From NCBI GenBank assembly GCA_010093745.1, contig MU005964.1, forward strand, positions 62,001 through 126,000: DNA of 64,000 nt. Reading direction: 5' to 3'. Positions 8,352 to 14,826 of this stretch are shown piece by piece (position 1 is the stretch's first letter; every line of letters begins with the position of its first letter). The notes beneath the pieces were generated by a model, which was not told the DNA's origin, searched no databases, and worked only from the letters and a program-made list of their open reading frames with translations. Origin of the DNA: Piedraia hortae CBS 480.64. Taxonomy: Eukaryota. The position numbers were made by a program, and so were the translations under genes.

Positions 8352-11300
8352 TCAGTAGCATTCTCGCTCAATCTCCGCACCGGAGAAGTCGTCTTCGTCG
8401 GCGAAATCCATGCGGTGCTGCGCATCAGAGTCATAGCTCTGGTCTTTTAGGAGGGGAGTCAGTGGGCTTTGGGATGTGTGGTTCTCTTCCTTCCTCTGTA
8501 GACGCGGAGGCGGAATGGCCTTTGTGCTTTGAGGGCGGGAGCTCGCGCGGACGTTACTCGCTGGAGGCGTCATCAGCCCCGTAGGCGTTTTCAGAGCTGA
8601 GCTCTCCATGCTGCTTCGCCACTTGTTGAATGCAGACGAGATTTGTGCTGCAGCTTGGCCTTTCCATCCACCGCGTTTTTCCTGTGCTTCCATTTCCAGA
8701 CTGGCGCGAATACGCACGGCTGCGTCGCGGACTGTTCGGCGGTCGTAGTCTGGCCCCGAGAGGGTGGCGATGAGTTCTGTCAAGTCCTCGTTGCGTACTT
8801 GTAGGAGTTCGCGGAGCCAGTTGACCTCTGACTGGAGCTCTTTGATGCGTCGGGGATTCGCTTGGACCTGTAACTTCTCGATGCGTTGCTCCCTTGCTTG
8901 CAGTTGCTCTTGCAATACGCAAATGGTCTCGCGTAGGGCTTGCGGTGAGATCTTCTCGGGCTCACTGGACCGGGACTTTGCACTGGCTGCCGCGGCTTGG
9001 GCTGCTGTTGTAGCAATCTCGAGTCTTTCTTGCATGTAATTGATGCGCTCCTGCGAATGCTGCAGTCTGGCATCCGCAATGGTAAGGCGTTCCCGCATGA
9101 TTTCTTCTAGACGAGCCTTGTCTTCCTTGGCATGCTCCACGGCACGCGTGTAGCGAAGTGTCAGCTCATCTACCGTTGTGCTATTCGCTTGTTGAGCCAT
9201 TCGTAACGCTGCTTCGCCCTCAATGCGGTTGGTCTCAAGTGTGAGGCGGGCTTTTGCCAGCTTCTCCTCGAGCTCTGTCTGTGTCTTACGGCTGCTCGTC
9301 TCAAACTCATGCATCTCACGCTCCTTTAGCCCTATCAGACTTTGCTTTTCCTCGACCTGAGCTTGAAGCTTGCTACGTTCCTGCTCCAAAGCTGCAAGCA
9401 CACGATTTGCCTCTTCGCCTTCAACGAGTTTTGAACGGGCAATTCGCAGCTCCTCGACATGTTCCTGGCATTCTCTATCCCGAACAGCCTGTGCAGCCAC
9501 GAGTGCATCGTACTTCTGACGATGTTCATATTCTCGAGCCTTGGACAGAGCTTTCTCGCTTGCTAGCTGACTTGCAGCAGTCGCCATATCGGCGTGCAGC
9601 TTTTCCAGTCTCCGCTTCATTACACCACTGGACTCATGGCCTTCCTCAACCAGCTGCTTTAAGCTTGCAATACGTTCTTCGAACATGTGGCGCTCCCTCG
9701 TTGCTTCATCAATACCCTGTCGCCATTTGGTGCTTGAGAGACGGTATTCATCTAAGGTATGTTGCAACGCTCGATTCTCTGCTTGTAAACCCTCAGCCTT
9801 TGCCTCGGTCATCTTCAAGGCTTTTGTCACCCCCCGAAGCTCATCTTCAAGCGAATCGCGTTTGGCAGCTTGATCCTGAATTTTTTTGCGAAGGACTTGC
9901 AACTCTGGGTCATTGTCCGAACGATGCATTAGCTGGGTGTCGCCATATTCAAAGGATGACGGAAGATGGCGCTCCAACACCTCCTCAACCATCGAGCGAA
10001 CGTCAGCCACGACGGGGCCGACGGAAACCGTCTTTGCAAGGGTTGTTTGTATTTCTTCGAGCGAGGATTGAAGTGCTGTAAGATCGAAAGGGAGCTGAGC
10101 TGGTCGAGCCTGTTCCTCCCGCAAAGCTTCCAGCACAGCGACTTTGATCTGCTCCTGACGTTTTTCACGGCTGCGAGATATGGGACGTCTGGGCTGATAC
10201 GTTGCCATGTCTTCGTCATCGGCATCGCTGTCGATGGTTGAAGGGCTATGCTTGGACAACGGCCTGTCAGCAGAGCTGCTGTTGATCTTACTGACTGCTT
10301 TCTCGAGGGGCCGAATGTGGTCTTGCACAACGCGAGTAAGGACTTCTTCAAGGCCATCTGCATCCCTAACCGGTTTCTTCCATGCCTCCTCAGGCCATTT
10401 GGATGACACCACGTGAGTGGTTTCGACACGCCGATGGCCAGGCCATTCGCTTGTCTCGCCACTGCTTCTCCTTTTCGGTAGGCTTGAGAGGGTGCCCATC
10501 GACTCTTCTTCCTGATCTGACATGGTTGACAAGTCACTTTCTTGCAGAGGCGGCGAATTGTTAAGCTCTCGCATGACAAGATCAATCTCTGAAAATGTTG
10601 GATGATCAGGAGACGGAGGTAGTGGCTTTTCACTTGCAACTACTTCATTGCCGTTAAATTGCTCAAGGGTGTTGGAGAAAGCACTTGTAATTGGCACAAA
10701 CGGTGCAGCAAGTGCAGAAAGCGATGAAGACTGTTTGTGACCTCTTACCGCCGGCATTACATTCTGCACTGGAGGTTCCAGTTCAGCTGCGCGGGCGGCT
10801 AGTTCAGCCTCTTCAGGATCAGACGTAGCGTCAGCAGGTGGCTGTTCAGCGAAAAGAGGCACTTCATCATTGGCTGAGCTGAATTTACGCTGGCGTTTGA
10901 TCCGATCGTCGCTCTGCTTGACGCGTCCGTCTTCGTCATCTGCCTCCTTGTCGTCCGACGGCGGGACTATTGGAACAGCTTTCGATTTCCGGGTTGTTTT
11001 AGCACGAGGGACGTTGACACGCCCAAATATACTTGGAAGTCCACCATCTGGGGTATTTGGAAGTTTCTTGGCATTTTCGAAGCCAGGAAAGTTAAAGTCT
11101 GAATTGGGTTGAAATGCAGGTGCGGCCACGTTCAAACTAGCTGTAGGCTTGTGAATGTGCTTATAGATACCATCAGTCTCGGAACTGGAAGGGCAATGGA
11201 TGTCGGAGTTATTGGGTGGCGCAACGTCCCCATCCATCTGAGCCCGAATCTGGTCAGGCACAAAGGGAGGGTTCGGAGCCACTGAAATACCCGAATGAAC

Positions 11301-12530
11301 CAGTGGAGACGGAACACGCACGTTACCCTGGCGGATACCTGGGAACTGGCCCGGAGAGGGGTTCCGTGACGAGCTTCCAAAGTGGCGTGAAATGTCAACC
11401 GAAGCCGCGAATCCGTGCACGTGACCAAGCCCGCTAGCCGGGGATGATGGCGACGCCATCGTCATGGCGTGGGAATGTCCGCGGACCATTGGCGGGAGGC
11501 TAACGCTTTCGTTGAGGTAGGACCTTGCTGATAGGTATGGATAATGGTGACCGTTGAGACGTCCGTTGGGTTCGTCCCTGGCCAGTTCAACCCCCAAAGC
11601 TGCTAGCCTCTGTTCCATTAGCTCAGCCTCGTGGGCTTTCCACTTGTCAAAGTCTGGAAATCGGACAGTAGGGCGCTGCTGTTCGTCTTTTGCCCGCTCT
11701 TCTGGGTAAATGGGCCTTGCCAGAACGCCCTGAACGTCAAATCCATGCAAATTGTAGCCCAACTGCTCAAACTTGCGGAGTCGTAATCGAATTTCATCAT
11801 CAGTCAATGGCTTCGGCAGCCCAAGAGCCTTGAAATCGACATCCGGAATCGAGACGATGCAGGTTTTCCCTCGCCAAGGGATTCGCTTGCGAGTTCTGGC
11901 GCGAGAGATATTCGTTAAAGCATTCCTGATCTGCTGACGCTCGTCTGAAACGTTGCTTGCCCATTGTGAGGTGGGAGTTTCCTCAGCCACTCCACTTGTT
12001 CTATCTTCCATGGTCTCGACAAATGATTGCTGGTTCAGAGTATGATTATGCTCCCTTGATATATGTCTCTTGCACGACCTTTCAGTGCGGTTATGCGACT
12101 TCCGGGTTGGGGAGATGGAGACGCGTACGGCTCTTGTAGCCCAAGGTTTCTTCTGATTATCCAAGCTGCGCCCGCGCTTCGATACAAGATGTGAAGCAAC
12201 CAAGCTGCTTTCTGGGTAATACGATCCTGAGTGCTCTGCCTTAGACAGGCCAAAATCTCTTAGCCGGTTTGGCACAATGTGCTCGAGCCCAAAAGTCAGC
12301 AACGGCGAGCTTTCGTTGTCTCTTTCCGGAGCTGGAAACGGCTCAGTCCAAGCAGTATAGGTGGTGCCGGTCGAAGATGGCGATCGTGGGTATGGCGACC
12401 CCCAAACGGCCGTGTAGTAATCCGACGTGTCGTCTCTGTGCCGCCAATGATTGTTTGCTGGGGTCCGAGGCGGTGGGAGATGGACGGGATCCAGCGTCGA
12501 GCTGGACTTTTTCCTTGAATGCCCGTACAA
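8352..12530 (-). CDS. Large fungal protein with disordered N-terminal half and long C-terminal coiled coil (often labelled myosin-heavy-chain-like); start codon uncertain
   Basis: 1392-codon ORF opening at TTG 12530. The first in-frame ATG is at 12011. The frame stays open back to an intron at 12676-12623. The C-terminus is heptad-rich in E/K/R/L/Q. Confidence 0.8.
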   Translation of the reverse strand: MYGHSRKKSSSTLDPVHLPPPRTPANNHWRHRDDTSDYYTAVWGSPYPRSPSSTGTTYTAWTEPFPAPERDNESSPLLTFGLEHIVPNRLRDFGLSKAEHSGSYYPESSLVASHLVSKRGRSLDNQKKPWATRAVRVSISPTRKSHNRTERSCKRHISREHNHTLNQQSFVETMEDRTSGVAEETPTSQWASNVSDERQQIRNALTNISRARTRKRIPWRGKTCIVSIPDVDFKALGLPKPLTDDEIRLRLRKFEQLGYNLHGFDVQGVLARPIYPEERAKDEQQRPTVRFPDFDKWKAHEAELMEQRLAALGVELARDEPNGRLNGHHYPYLSARSYLNESVSLPPMVRGHSHAMTMASPSSPASGLGHVHGFAASVDISRHFGSSSRNPSPGQFPGIRQGNVRVPSPLVHSGISVAPNPPFVPDQIRAQMDGDVAPPNNSDIHCPSSSETDGIYKHIHKPTASLNVAAPAFQPNSDFNFPGFENAKKLPNTPDGGLPSIFGRVNVPRAKTTRKSKAVPIVPPSDDKEADDEDGRVKQSDDRIKRQRKFSSANDEVPLFAEQPPADATSDPEEAELAARAAELEPPVQNVMPAVRGHKQSSSLSALAAPFVPITSAFSNTLEQFNGNEVVASEKPLPPSPDHPTFSEIDLVMRELNNSPPLQESDLSTMSDQEEESMGTLSSLPKRRSSGETSEWPGHRRVETTHVVSSKWPEEAWKKPVRDADGLEEVLTRVVQDHIRPLEKAVSKINSSSADRPLSKHSPSTIDSDADDEDMATYQPRRPISRSREKRQEQIKVAVLEALREEQARPAQLPFDLTALQSSLEEIQTTLAKTVSVGPVVADVRSMVEEVLERHLPSSFEYGDTQLMHRSDNDPELQVLRKKIQDQAAKRDSLEDELRGVTKALKMTEAKAEGLQAENRALQHTLDEYRLSSTKWRQGIDEATRERHMFEERIASLKQLVEEGHESSGVMKRRLEKLHADMATAASQLASEKALSKAREYEHRQKYDALVAAQAVRDRECQEHVEELRIARSKLVEGEEANRVLAALEQERSKLQAQVEEKQSLIGLKEREMHEFETSSRKTQTELEEKLAKARLTLETNRIEGEAALRMAQQANSTTVDELTLRYTRAVEHAKEDKARLEEIMRERLTIADARLQHSQERINYMQERLEIATTAAQAAAASAKSRSSEPEKISPQALRETICVLQEQLQAREQRIEKLQVQANPRRIKELQSEVNWLRELLQVRNEDLTELIATLSGPDYDRRTVRDAAVRIRASLEMEAQEKRGGWKGQAAAQISSAFNKWRSSMESSALKTPTGLMTPPASNVRASSRPQSTKAIPPPRLQRKEENHTSQSPLTPLLKDQSYDSDAQHRMDFADEDDFSGAEIERECY

Positions 12531-13514
12531 GTCTCGATGGGCTACTGGAGGTGACGCGATGTGACCATTCCTAACCGGAGACCTGCCGGTGCTTCGCAGC
12601 TGGACACGATCGTCTGTAAAGGCTGCACCACATCTCTGTTAGTGAGAGACTTGGGGAAGACGTTTTCGAGCCATACCGTCCACGGCTCAGGCTTCAGAGA
12701 GCGACTTCAAGCCGCTCAGTTGTCAATGTTTTTCAGACGCGTCCAAGATGCCTGATCGACCCGACGGTAATTAAAGCCGAAAAGAGCTGGAGAGGTTATA
12801 TGACAAACGGCAAGGTGAATAGTGGACTGGTTCCGCGCATGGTGGTTGTGTTGTTGGTATTGTCGGAACAATGCGTCAAGGGTGGCTGGGTGTTCATCCC
12901 ATGTGGAGCTGTCATTCGCGAACGACAACTGAAAGCTGCACAGGGGTCGGCTCAACCTCGGTGGGTAGGATGTCGGAGAATTTTTTGGCTTTTGCCCTTG
13001 GGCCTGGAATGGCCATGGTTGTATCATGTACCACTCGTGCAGTTTTCTCGAACAATGCTGTCGTTCCAGGTGAACACTGCCGTTATTTCATCCCGTTAAA
13101 CAGAGCCTTTTAGCAATTCTTGATAGATGTCAGTGTGATGCCGCGATCAGAGCGAGCTGATGAAGGAATTCATGGTACGATAGCCAGTTTTCAGACGAGA
13201 CCTGGTCCAGTTTTCAATTGCTTATGAAAATCAATGCCATGTGTACTCTCACACAAAACCTACCAGAATTTCGATTCACGAATTTTCCACCTCTCGTACT
13301 GATCTATAACAATTAAAGTACAGTTGCTCTCCACCTAGCGTAACGGACTTATAGGGAAAGCTGCCTGGGTTGGTACGTGGTAGCGCAATCAATAAATCTG
13401 ATCACTACAGTGAAGTTCTTCCAACCGCACCTCTGCTTAATTTTCGCGTGACTTTCACATCAACCTCAAAATTTCTCTCAAGGCAAAACAGAACATGACT
13501 TTTTCATTCCGGCC

Positions 13515-14468
13515 ATGACAAATGTAGTTTCAACACAGAAAGCGAGTCCTGGTGAGTTCATGTGATGATCCCACACCGACCCGCCTAACGCGGCCCCAGC
13601 CTTTCACCTCGTTGCCGGACTCGGTTCCGGCGCAACAACTGCCTTTCTGCTACAACCGGCAGACCTCCTCAAGACGCGAGTGCAGCAATCACAGTCCTCG
13701 ACGCTTACCCAAGCTTTCCGGGAGATTCTCAATGGCCCACGTCCCGTACAAACGCTGTGGCGAGGGGTCGTCCCGTCAGTGCTGCGAACGGGGTGTGGAT
13801 CGGCGCTCTACTTTGGTATGCTCAGCCAGATGAGGCAGTACACCGCGAAGCATTTCACCAAACCAGCTTCATCTGCATCAGAGGCGAGCACGTCATCTGT
13901 GTCACCTAAACTTGGCAATGTAGGAAATCTGACCACAGGTGCTTTGGCCCGTGTGGCCGCCGGACTAGTCGTGAACCCCATAACCGTGCTCAAAGTGCGA
14001 TACGAGTCCACACATTATGCCTACACCTCCTTGGCGGGTGCAGCGAGAGACATTGTCAGGAAAGAGGGGCTTCGTGGCTTTTTCGCAGGGTTTGATGCCA
14101 CGGCCGTGAGGGATGCACCCTATGCTGGATTCTATGTTCTAGTCTACGAGCAGTTGAAGAAGCAGTTGAATGCGCTTTCACCGCCGGAGCACGGCTCCGG
14201 TTCAGTCTCTATAAACTTCATATCGGGAGTCATCGCCGCCGTGTCGGCTACAACATTGACAAATCCCTTTGATGCCATCAAGACTCGCTTACAGCTTGCG
14301 CCGGGAAGATATGGAAATCTCTTTAGTGCAGCACGGATAATGTTGAGGGAAGAAGGCGTTGGGAGCATGTTTAGCGGACTCAGCATGCGCATCGGCCGCA
14401 AGGCTTTGAGCAGTGCATTTACCTGGACGACATATGAGGAACTGATTCGTAGAGCGGGAAAGTACTGA
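13515..14468 (+). CDS. HEM25: Mitochondrial glycine carrier (SLC25A38/Hem25; intron 13552-13599)
   Basis: Spliced product has three carrier repeats: [23 protein letters not shown] and [11 protein letters not shown]. Hem25-type RDAPYAG and RKALSSA..WT.YE are present. Confidence 0.9.
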
Positions 14469-14826
14469 TGTAAAAGTAGTGGCAATGTGTGAGACCAATT
14501 AGACGGTTGTCTGTGCTGGCCGATAAGAGACTGCTGACCTCAAGTTTCGTGTTGGACGAATCTTGTTGGGCTTGTCCAACGCCCACTTTTTTCTAGACTT
14601 TCGTGTTAGAAAAAGCAATGCGATACGATTCCATGTGCTGCCCTCTTCATTGGCCTGTGACACGCTGGAATGTATGTCCAGCAGGTTTGACCTGCCTCAA
14701 CCTAAACGCACAGACTCGTGCAACCCCTCTACAAAAACGAAACTTGACAAGCCGCTCTTTTTTTTTTTTTTTTTGCCTCAAGGTTCTGTCTACACCTTTG
14801 ACAGTTCAAACGTACACGACAACGAT

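Follow-up and report, generated by a model that had tools for sequence, protein, structure and literature searches.

The gene described here encodes a coiled-coil protein of the fungus Piedraia hortae CBS 480.64, and the systems closest to it are C/EBP alpha and beta of vertebrates, cpc-1 of Neurospora crassa, the pregenomic RNA of rice tungro bacilliform virus (RTBV) and a group of mRNAs discussed in terms of ribosome queuing. According to the portions of the cited reports that deal with them, C/EBP yields an extended isoform from an upstream near-cognate start in good context, and a small out-of-frame AUG open reading frame (ORF) is followed by reinitiation at downstream in-frame AUGs (PMC5487733). 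Extended forms of C/EBP-alpha start from CUG/GUG (PMC2810377). In N. crassa cpc-1 and its homologs the first of these sources describes a conserved AUG-less in-frame extension and near-cognate codons whose A at −3 and G at +4 are conserved, and the main frame is under purifying selection across a region that an out-of-frame upstream ORF (uORF) also covers; there are several candidate codons, the leader is longer than 700 nucleotides (nt) with two classical uORFs, and the ratio of nonsynonymous to synonymous substitution rates (dN/dS) of the extension is 0.285 (PMC5487733). For ORFs I–III of RTBV, the account consulted gives an AUU as the first start, used by ~10% of ribosomes and followed by ~900 nt without internal AUGs, through which the remaining ribosomes scan to the next AUGs; a short ORF inserted into this AUG-free stretch left downstream initiation undisturbed (PMC5902531). 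Queuing models, as outlined in two further sources, allot ~30 nt to each 80S ribosome and 60 nt to a disome, and spacing matters in them (PMC6601509, PMC11058473). The P. hortae gene lies in a stretch of 64,000 nt (contig MU005964.1 of assembly GCA_010093745.1, positions 62,001 to 126,000; hereafter the window). All its coordinates are given in the window and on the minus strand, and dN/dS values, shuffles and counts refer only to the sets named with them. The host of the window is a filamentous ascomycete, and the best protein matches all come from Dothideomycetes (Acidomyces, Salinomyces, Hortaea, Friedmanniomyces, Zymoseptoria).

Comparison with related loci and RNA-derived contigs make it likely that this gene produces a long isoform from a GUG at position 12683 and a short isoform from an AUG at 12011, the latter reached by leaky scanning or reinitiation. 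From stop to stop the ORF covers 8352..12638 (1428 codons). Its first in-frame ATG (12009..12011, GAGACC AUG G, the proposed start of the short isoform) lies in the context ACCATGG, and the database protein model for the window (P0002, 1219 amino acids (aa)) begins there. The protein body from this ATG to the stop codon, inclusive, occupies 8352..12011 and would be common to both isoforms. Upstream of the ATG the frame remains open to 12638, which lies inside a candidate phase-1 intron of 54 nt (12623..12676; GTATGG ... CTAAC ... CAG). The upstream sequence runs TGA GCC GTG GAC G, then GTATGG...CACTAAC...GCAG, then CC TTT ACA GAC. Removal of the intron, seen in an RNA contig as a joint between 12622 and 12677, therefore gives TGA GCC GTG GAC G/CC. 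All these readings of a preliminary description of the locus, made from the letters alone, were borne out. The coding part of exon 1 is just 7 nt long (GTG GAC G, 12677..12683), and the proposed start codon (12681..12683; GCC GUG G) has G at −3 and G at +4. Because an in-frame TGA (12687..12689) lies two codons upstream of the GTG, the frame is closed to any upstream AUG. Within the intron there are two ATGs, one in frame (12674) and one out of frame (12633), and an in-frame TAA (12641-12639) comes after the first of them. The region between the intron and the ATG at 12011 (12012..12622) is the N-terminal extension, a conserved domain with the motifs PPPRTPA, DYYTAVWGSPY and FGLEHIVPNRL.

The extension differs from chance sequence in two ways. 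Between the ATG at 12568 and that at 12011 there is no ATG in any of the three frames (ATG-free stretch 12012..12565), as had been claimed, and the resulting gap of 557 nt is the longest on either strand of the window, the next being 423 nt. The preliminary description had expected eight or nine ATGs here; the computed expectation is lower, 6.4–7.0. Zero ATGs occurred in 1 of 5000 dinucleotide shuffles of the stretch and in 13 of 5000 codon shuffles, which preserve its Met-free amino acid composition. In addition, the 203 codons from 12620 to 12012 stayed free of stops in only 11 of 20000 mononucleotide shuffles, while the other two frames contain four and seven stops over the same stretch.

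Relatives of the gene were taken from 36 metagenome loci found in one contig scan with an alignment to the N-terminus. In 14 of the 36 the frame from the upstream stop to the motif lacks an ATG, and closer reading of the DNA put the true number higher. The P. hortae gene and 19 of the loci (L001-L016, L018, L019, L036) share the element RNN-(GTG/CTG)-GA(A/C)-G, with GTG as start codon in P. hortae and nine loci and CTG in ten. The base at −3 is A in 19/19 loci and G in P. hortae, and +4 is G in all 20 sequences. These sequences represent about nine lineages, P. hortae included, with 34–59% protein identity over the first 230 aa (75% for one lineage pair). The conserved near-cognate codon, its context and the depletion of ATGs, which had been proposed as checks, were thus found in about eight further lineages. 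Read back in frame from the near-cognate codon, none of the 20 sequences shows an ATG before the upstream stop, which lies 2–86 codons from the start codon; in L010 the frame runs off the contig. In 18 of the 20 the element is followed by a GT donor and a frame-restoring intron of 48–115 nt with a CTRAY-like site 10–19 nt before the acceptor. L003 and L007 are intron-less and continue directly with GC in frame, so the start codon keeps its frame with or without the intron, and spliced and intron-less forms share the N-terminus (V/L)-E-G-T. In seven loci the sole "Met" lies inside the predicted intron, either in the donor GTATG (L004, L005) or adjoining the branch site (L008, L009, L012, L014, L018). 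Gene finders would take such an intronic in-frame ATG as the start, and a retained intron could give an alternative N-terminus.

Upstream of the CTG, frames are open for 62–86 codons in some loci; coding there was ruled out by indels that are not multiples of three, and in the CTG group conservation begins only ~35 nt before the CTG, at a leader hairpin described below. A loose form of the pattern, NTGGANGG, also matched elsewhere: in L006 at 1895, in L013/L015/L016 ~430 nt upstream of the motif, in L019 50 nt upstream and in L030/31/33/34 136 nt upstream. These matches were dropped, as they adjoin neither the 5' end of the frame nor a donor. Loci L025-L029 and L032, where the intron ends in ATAG and exon 1 ends in GTG CTA AG or GCA GAA G, enter no count.

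The ATG at 12568 opens a tiny ORF in the +1 frame (12542..12568; AUG, seven codons and TAG), whose AUG lies at +61 nt from the GTG in the spliced mRNA, in the context GGA AUG G. The preliminary description had noted this eight-codon out-of-frame ORF; its existence stands, and the comparison shows it not to be incidental, since a tiny +1-frame ORF is conserved at 19/19 loci. In all 20 spliced sequences the first ATG after the start is in frame +1, at +58 (2 sequences), +61 (10), +64 (6) or +76 (2), which places it 58–64 nt after the start in seven of the nine lineages and 76 nt in two. The ORF has three codons at two loci, four at 17 and eight in P. hortae. Its ATG is built from an in-frame NAT-G pair in which the encoded residues vary (Y, N, H or D, followed by D, G or A), and the wobble position is T in 9/9 lineages although NAT makes up only a 0.41 share of NAY codons in these genes. 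Likewise, its stop is provided by in-frame GTA, CTA or TTA in 9/9 lineages, whereas the xTA share among Val and Leu codons is 0.14. Since the residues have changed while the wobble T and the xTA bases have not, this pattern, as read from the alignments of lineages that share ancestry, points to selection acting on the tiny ORF itself. In P. hortae the tiny-ORF ATG lies before the SPP motif and in the others after it, and the distance from the start is still +61. The segment between the start and the tiny-ORF AUG folds no better than shuffles in 9/9 lineages (z −0.99 to +1.47), which gives no support to assistance of non-AUG initiation by a stable hairpin ~14 nt or more downstream.

Of the sequences that extend to a further ATG beyond the tiny ORF, 17 of 17 have it in the protein frame (+543 to +879), and there is no ATG for 485–818 nt between the tiny-ORF AUG and this second AUG in the relatives and in P. 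hortae. Codon shuffles performed for each lineage gave zero ATGs in 2–181 of 2000 trials (p 0.001–0.09; Fisher's combined p 7e-9). At the protein level, all 44 motif-bearing homologs lack Met for 111–231 aa after the motif, and the first Met that follows is the M of M..L.AS(R/K)WA in 29 of them by strict pattern and in more by eye. The second AUG has a purine at −3 in 9/9 lineages, stands at M(S/A)SL.ASRWA in 7/9, and is the start of many relatives' gene models.

A sister group shows a variation of the same plan. Eleven loci that resemble Pleosporales proteins begin with an ATG directly after an in-frame stop or TGG. This AUG has T at −3 in 11/11 loci, a weak context, and none of the 11 has the tiny ORF. 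In nine of them there is no ATG in any frame for 819–825 nt, up to an in-frame GK-MM-ASKYA; of the remaining two, L035 contains a single ATG, at +361, and L023 is cut off before the stretch could be followed. As the sister group shows all three, the trait shared by the family is a first start that is weak and a second AUG that is conserved, with an ATG-free stretch leading up to the latter.

The N-terminal extension is real coding sequence. Homologs are mostly 2000–2500 aa long and carry PPPRTPA...(D/E)YYTA(A/V)WGSPY...FGLEHLxPSRL near the N-terminus; YYTAVWGSPY, which had been singled out as motif-like, proved to be a motif of the family, which a loose pattern finds in 44 of 59 homologous proteins. 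Aligned with 11 homologs, the extension is 35–44% identical with 26 invariant columns, and P. hortae keeps 26 of the 31 columns that are invariant in the other 11, four of the five changes being conservative. Searched against 1.84 billion proteins, a profile of the N-terminal domain matched only 51 cluster representatives (E up to 0.001), in most cases at the extreme N-terminus of proteins of ~2000–2500 aa. In relatives with a CTG start, dN/dS of the extension is 0.02–0.14 and that of the remaining protein 0.05–0.12; in the closely related pair L001/L002 the ratio is 0.49 for the extension and 0.33 for the body. The low ratios of 0.02–0.14 indicate that the N-terminal domain is translated in species that lack an AUG for it. 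A lack of coding conservation, named in the preliminary description as evidence against the extension, was therefore not what the comparison gave. It is probable that the family is specific to Dothideomycetes, with a conserved N-terminal domain of ~205 aa. Pfam contains no family that scores above cut-off in the P. hortae protein or four homologs, solved structures gave no match to the protein, and the best score in the ESM Atlas was 0.76, below the level of a usable lead. Some homologs are named "myosin class II heavy chain" in databases. The name is backed by no myosin motor or other Pfam myosin part, and probably reflects the coiled coil only. The P. hortae protein, 1425 aa from the GTG, is ~600–1000 aa shorter than homologs P0003-P0061, and BLAST against the homologs shows many long gaps in its middle and coiled-coil part.

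Conservation in relatives leaves room for the idea that in P. hortae itself the start of the extension has been lost, and that only the 1219-aa protein is made from AUG 12011 while the upstream frame has not yet decayed. Its lineage stands without a close relative for dN/dS, its protein is the most divergent and falls ~700 aa short of the homologs, and the stored model starts at 12011. We consider such a loss very improbable, because the 203 codons have stayed free of stops and the 26 of 31 invariant columns have been kept, and because every part of the module is intact in P. hortae: the near-cognate codon in its context, the intron, the tiny ORF at +61 and the ATG-free stretch. Moreover, the tiny ORF appears to have been re-created at a new place in the protein alignment and at the usual distance from the start, and in relatives the AUG-less state goes together with strong purifying selection.

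It is equally improbable that the long isoform starts at some other in-frame near-cognate codon of the extension, such as a CTG 30 nt downstream of the GTG or an ATC or TTG further on. Several such codons do follow the GTG, and some homologs in a MAFFT alignment have their Met ~8 residues past the position of the GTG. Across the lineages, though, it is the GTG/CTG at the 5' edge that is conserved in position, frame and −3/+4 context, and the CTG downstream has C at both −3 and +4.

An assembled transcript includes the extension and lacks the intron. Two public runs of the same organism contain this stretch. The first has the appearance of DNA and possibly gave rise to the assembly; the second comes from a separate study, was only guessed to be RNA, and is treated as RNA-derived because one of its contigs (4364 nt) shows three exact skips when the runs are compared over 11000-14600, two of them with GT..AG ends on the strand of the respective gene. 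The first skip is the intron 12676-12623 of the preliminary description, which is exactly removed (12622 joined to 12677, 54 nt, GT..AG on the minus strand). From 12677 to 13214 the contig has no break, and it follows that no exon of the assembled form brings an in-frame AUG past the TGA at 12689; an alternative splice supplying an in-frame ATG, which had been named as a possible refutation, does not occur in the assembled transcript. Over 11000-14600 neither run shows an alternative letter, and the G at 12683 can therefore not be put down to an error of assembly.

The other two skips lie further upstream. One removes 49 nt (13215-13263); its minus-strand reading starts with GTAGGT, a good donor, and ends in TTG instead of AG, and the joint has a 2-nt ambiguity with canonical ends on neither strand. 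Either an unusual intron of a long leader or a deletion carried by that sample might account for it. The third (~13551-13598, 48 nt, GT..AG on the plus strand) confirms an intron of the divergent neighbour (13569-14468, plus strand), whose product looks like a mitochondrial carrier. As the contig runs unbroken from this neighbour into the coiled-coil gene, their transcripts overlap or abut.

The least probable alternative is that a minor isoform, with another transcription start or splice, joins an upstream AUG exon in frame and the GUG goes unused: the contigs show only the dominant assembled form, the 49-nt skip indicates that the leader is processed, and some annotated homologs have an AUG a few codons upstream of V-E-G, but against it stand the TGA and the unbroken contig already mentioned, an exon 1 without in-frame ATG in 20/20 sequences, the CTG-group upstream DNA that carries indels not in multiples of three and is conserved only from the hairpin on, and five unrelated N-termini before TTDDYP in models from Friedmanniomyces and its kin, as if predictors had invented an AUG. 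These five Friedmanniomyces models (P0021, P0022, P0024, P0027 and P0038) come from near-identical genes and differ entirely in what precedes TTDDYP...SSPP, which fits predictors grafting arbitrary AUG exons onto an AUG-less gene.

The leader preceding the proposed GUG start has features of its own. A predicted hairpin, GAGCGGCU-UGA-AGUCGCUC (12699..12717), ends 15 nt upstream of the GTG and has a folding free energy of −11.7 kcal/mol (z −3.2). Its arms GAGCG(A)/(U)CGCUC with a variable loop recur in eight of nine lineages (loci L001, L004, L006, L007, L008, L009, L011, L013 and L019), ending 9–22 nt upstream of the start; seven other folded hairpins gave z −1.7 to −4.7 in windows chosen by hand. 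Changes in the stem are one-sided only and thus give no proof by covariation; an RNA structure is plausible, and a DNA palindrome is the alternative. In L004, L007 and L019 an AUG ORF of 3–5 codons overlaps the hairpin and stops in its loop. L008-L016 and their kin share another conserved block, CCTTTCRTTTGTGRAGGGTAAT, which lies ~190 nt before the CTG; it resembles a donor (G/GTAAT) and may point to a leader intron. No ATG occurs in the 157 nt that immediately precede the P. hortae GTG, and in most relatives more than 200 nt are free of it. Further upstream, between 13240 and 12840, there are nine ATGs (13240, 13173, 13091, 13027, 13016, 12915, 12902, 12897 and 12840), the one at 13027 opening a 103-codon ORF that runs to 12716 and ends 33 nt upstream of the GTG.

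Several points weigh against initiation at the GUG. If the main transcription start lies far upstream, the nine leader ATGs would allow few ribosomes to reach it. The contigs give no transcription start, expression level or minor isoforms, rare isoforms having been dropped, and the RNA-derived contig extends upstream through the whole intergenic region into the neighbour; such a two-gene contig defines no single transcript. The P. hortae gene is the most divergent member of the set, with G and not A at −3, GAC and not GAA after the start codon and eight codons in the tiny ORF, and its protein is 34–47% identical to those of the other lineages. These lineages are related by descent, and counts like 9/9 are not independent trials. 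The conserved TGGAAG/GT could be partly constrained as splice-site context. Finally, some annotated homologs start with MSR-TVEG or MSR-SQGK, an AUG a few codons upstream of V-E-G, and on the strength of these models there may be AUG starts inside the near-cognate clade.

How could two isoforms arise from this arrangement? The scanning 43S complex would meet the GUG, with its purine at −3 and G at +4, 7 nt before the site of the already removed 54-nt intron, and a minority of complexes would initiate there and make the long isoform of 1425 aa. Most of the remaining complexes would start at AUG 12568, translate the tiny +1 ORF, terminate and resume scanning, and some would leak past this AUG as well. 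Because there is no other AUG for 557 nt, ribosomes of both kinds could reach AUG 12011 (A at −3, G at +4) and produce the short isoform of 1219 aa, which would lack the N-terminal domain. From this layout we infer initiation at the GUG, the existence of two isoforms and their ratio, and the route to the second AUG. The pair of starts fits leaky scanning in that the first is weak (GUG or CUG, or in the sister group an AUG with T at −3) and the second is a strong AUG in the same frame; between the two lies one conserved AUG, that of the tiny ORF, which the sister group lacks. The preliminary description had proposed leaky scanning with a near-cognate long and an AUG-initiated short isoform; the comparison supports this, each of the three refutation checks run having favoured it, with the amendment that the short isoform may also come from reinitiation after the tiny ORF.

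A bolder explanation, which we hold only tentatively and think rather unlikely, is that the module is a self-contained device that boosts non-AUG initiation through ribosome dwell at the tiny ORF. A 3–4-codon ORF about two ribosome lengths (58–64 nt) downstream of the GUG/CUG would act as the dwell site, as initiation and termination nearly coincide there. Following pre-initiation complexes might then stack back onto the near-cognate codon, and the GAGCGA/UCGCUC hairpin might re-form just behind the stacked complex. If this were true, the choice of start and the ratio of long to short isoform would depend on ribosome load. A hint that distance matters rather than residue comes from P. hortae, whose tiny-ORF AUG stands at a different place in the alignment and again at +61. 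The conserved spacing is weak as proof of queuing: the length of a neighbouring protein segment varies about as little, and the distance is 76 nt in two lineages, and for these two reasons we keep the likelihood of this explanation low.

Leaky scanning or reinitiation from a GUG start, if correct, has consequences for annotation. The stored 1219-aa model is without the only strongly conserved N-terminal domain of the family, and models of the gene in relatives begin at the second AUG or else bear unrelated invented N-termini. Since the models miss or invent the N-terminus, the whole Dothideomycete protein family is probably mis-started in databases. Current predictors have no way of calling a gene whose non-AUG start is followed after 7 nt by an intron, in some cases one containing a decoy ATG. 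The loci also form a natural series across deep divergence, with either a GUG/CUG in strong context and a tiny ORF, or an AUG in weak context without one. Such a series is suited to testing start-site choice, reinitiation and possibly queuing in filamentous fungi.

The evidence supports placing this gene within a known kind of architecture, a near-cognate start combined with leaky scanning or reinitiation, which here is family-wide and was previously unannotated. As far as the consulted accounts of the vertebrate genes go, the likeness to C/EBP alpha and beta lies in the upstream CUG/GUG start, the small out-of-frame ORF and the later in-frame AUGs, and a small out-of-frame AUG ORF between the near-cognate start and the in-frame AUG was found in 20/20 sequences. 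In contrast to C/EBP, the gene belongs to a fungus and its coiled-coil product is unrelated. Whereas only a few nt separate the end of the C/EBP uORF from the p42 AUG, the tiny ORF described here ends ~480–820 nt before the next AUG, inside a long stretch devoid of ATGs. A conserved leader hairpin and an intron that begins after 7 nt of coding sequence are further differences from C/EBP. RTBV, in the part of its description considered, differs in being a viral polycistronic RNA with ribosome shunting and separate proteins, while here a cellular mRNA would encode two proposed in-frame isoforms. The fungal precedent for a conserved near-cognate-started extension is cpc-1; compared with what its source reports in the sections on that gene, the present family has one conserved codon, an ORF of 3–8 codons, dN/dS of 0.02–0.14 and an ATG-free stretch. 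With the queuing systems, namely the upstream conserved coding region (uCC) of AZIN1, the SL3-CUG of ATF4 and the cycloheximide-resistant GUG of DAP5, the likeness that can be drawn from the sources at hand is a weak start upstream of a dwell site; in our case there is no pause peptide or downstream hairpin, and the minimal ORF as dwell site is a guess. The Dothideomycete genes are set apart from these systems by their leader hairpin, by an intron after the first 7 coding nt and by a minimal ORF overlapping the main one.

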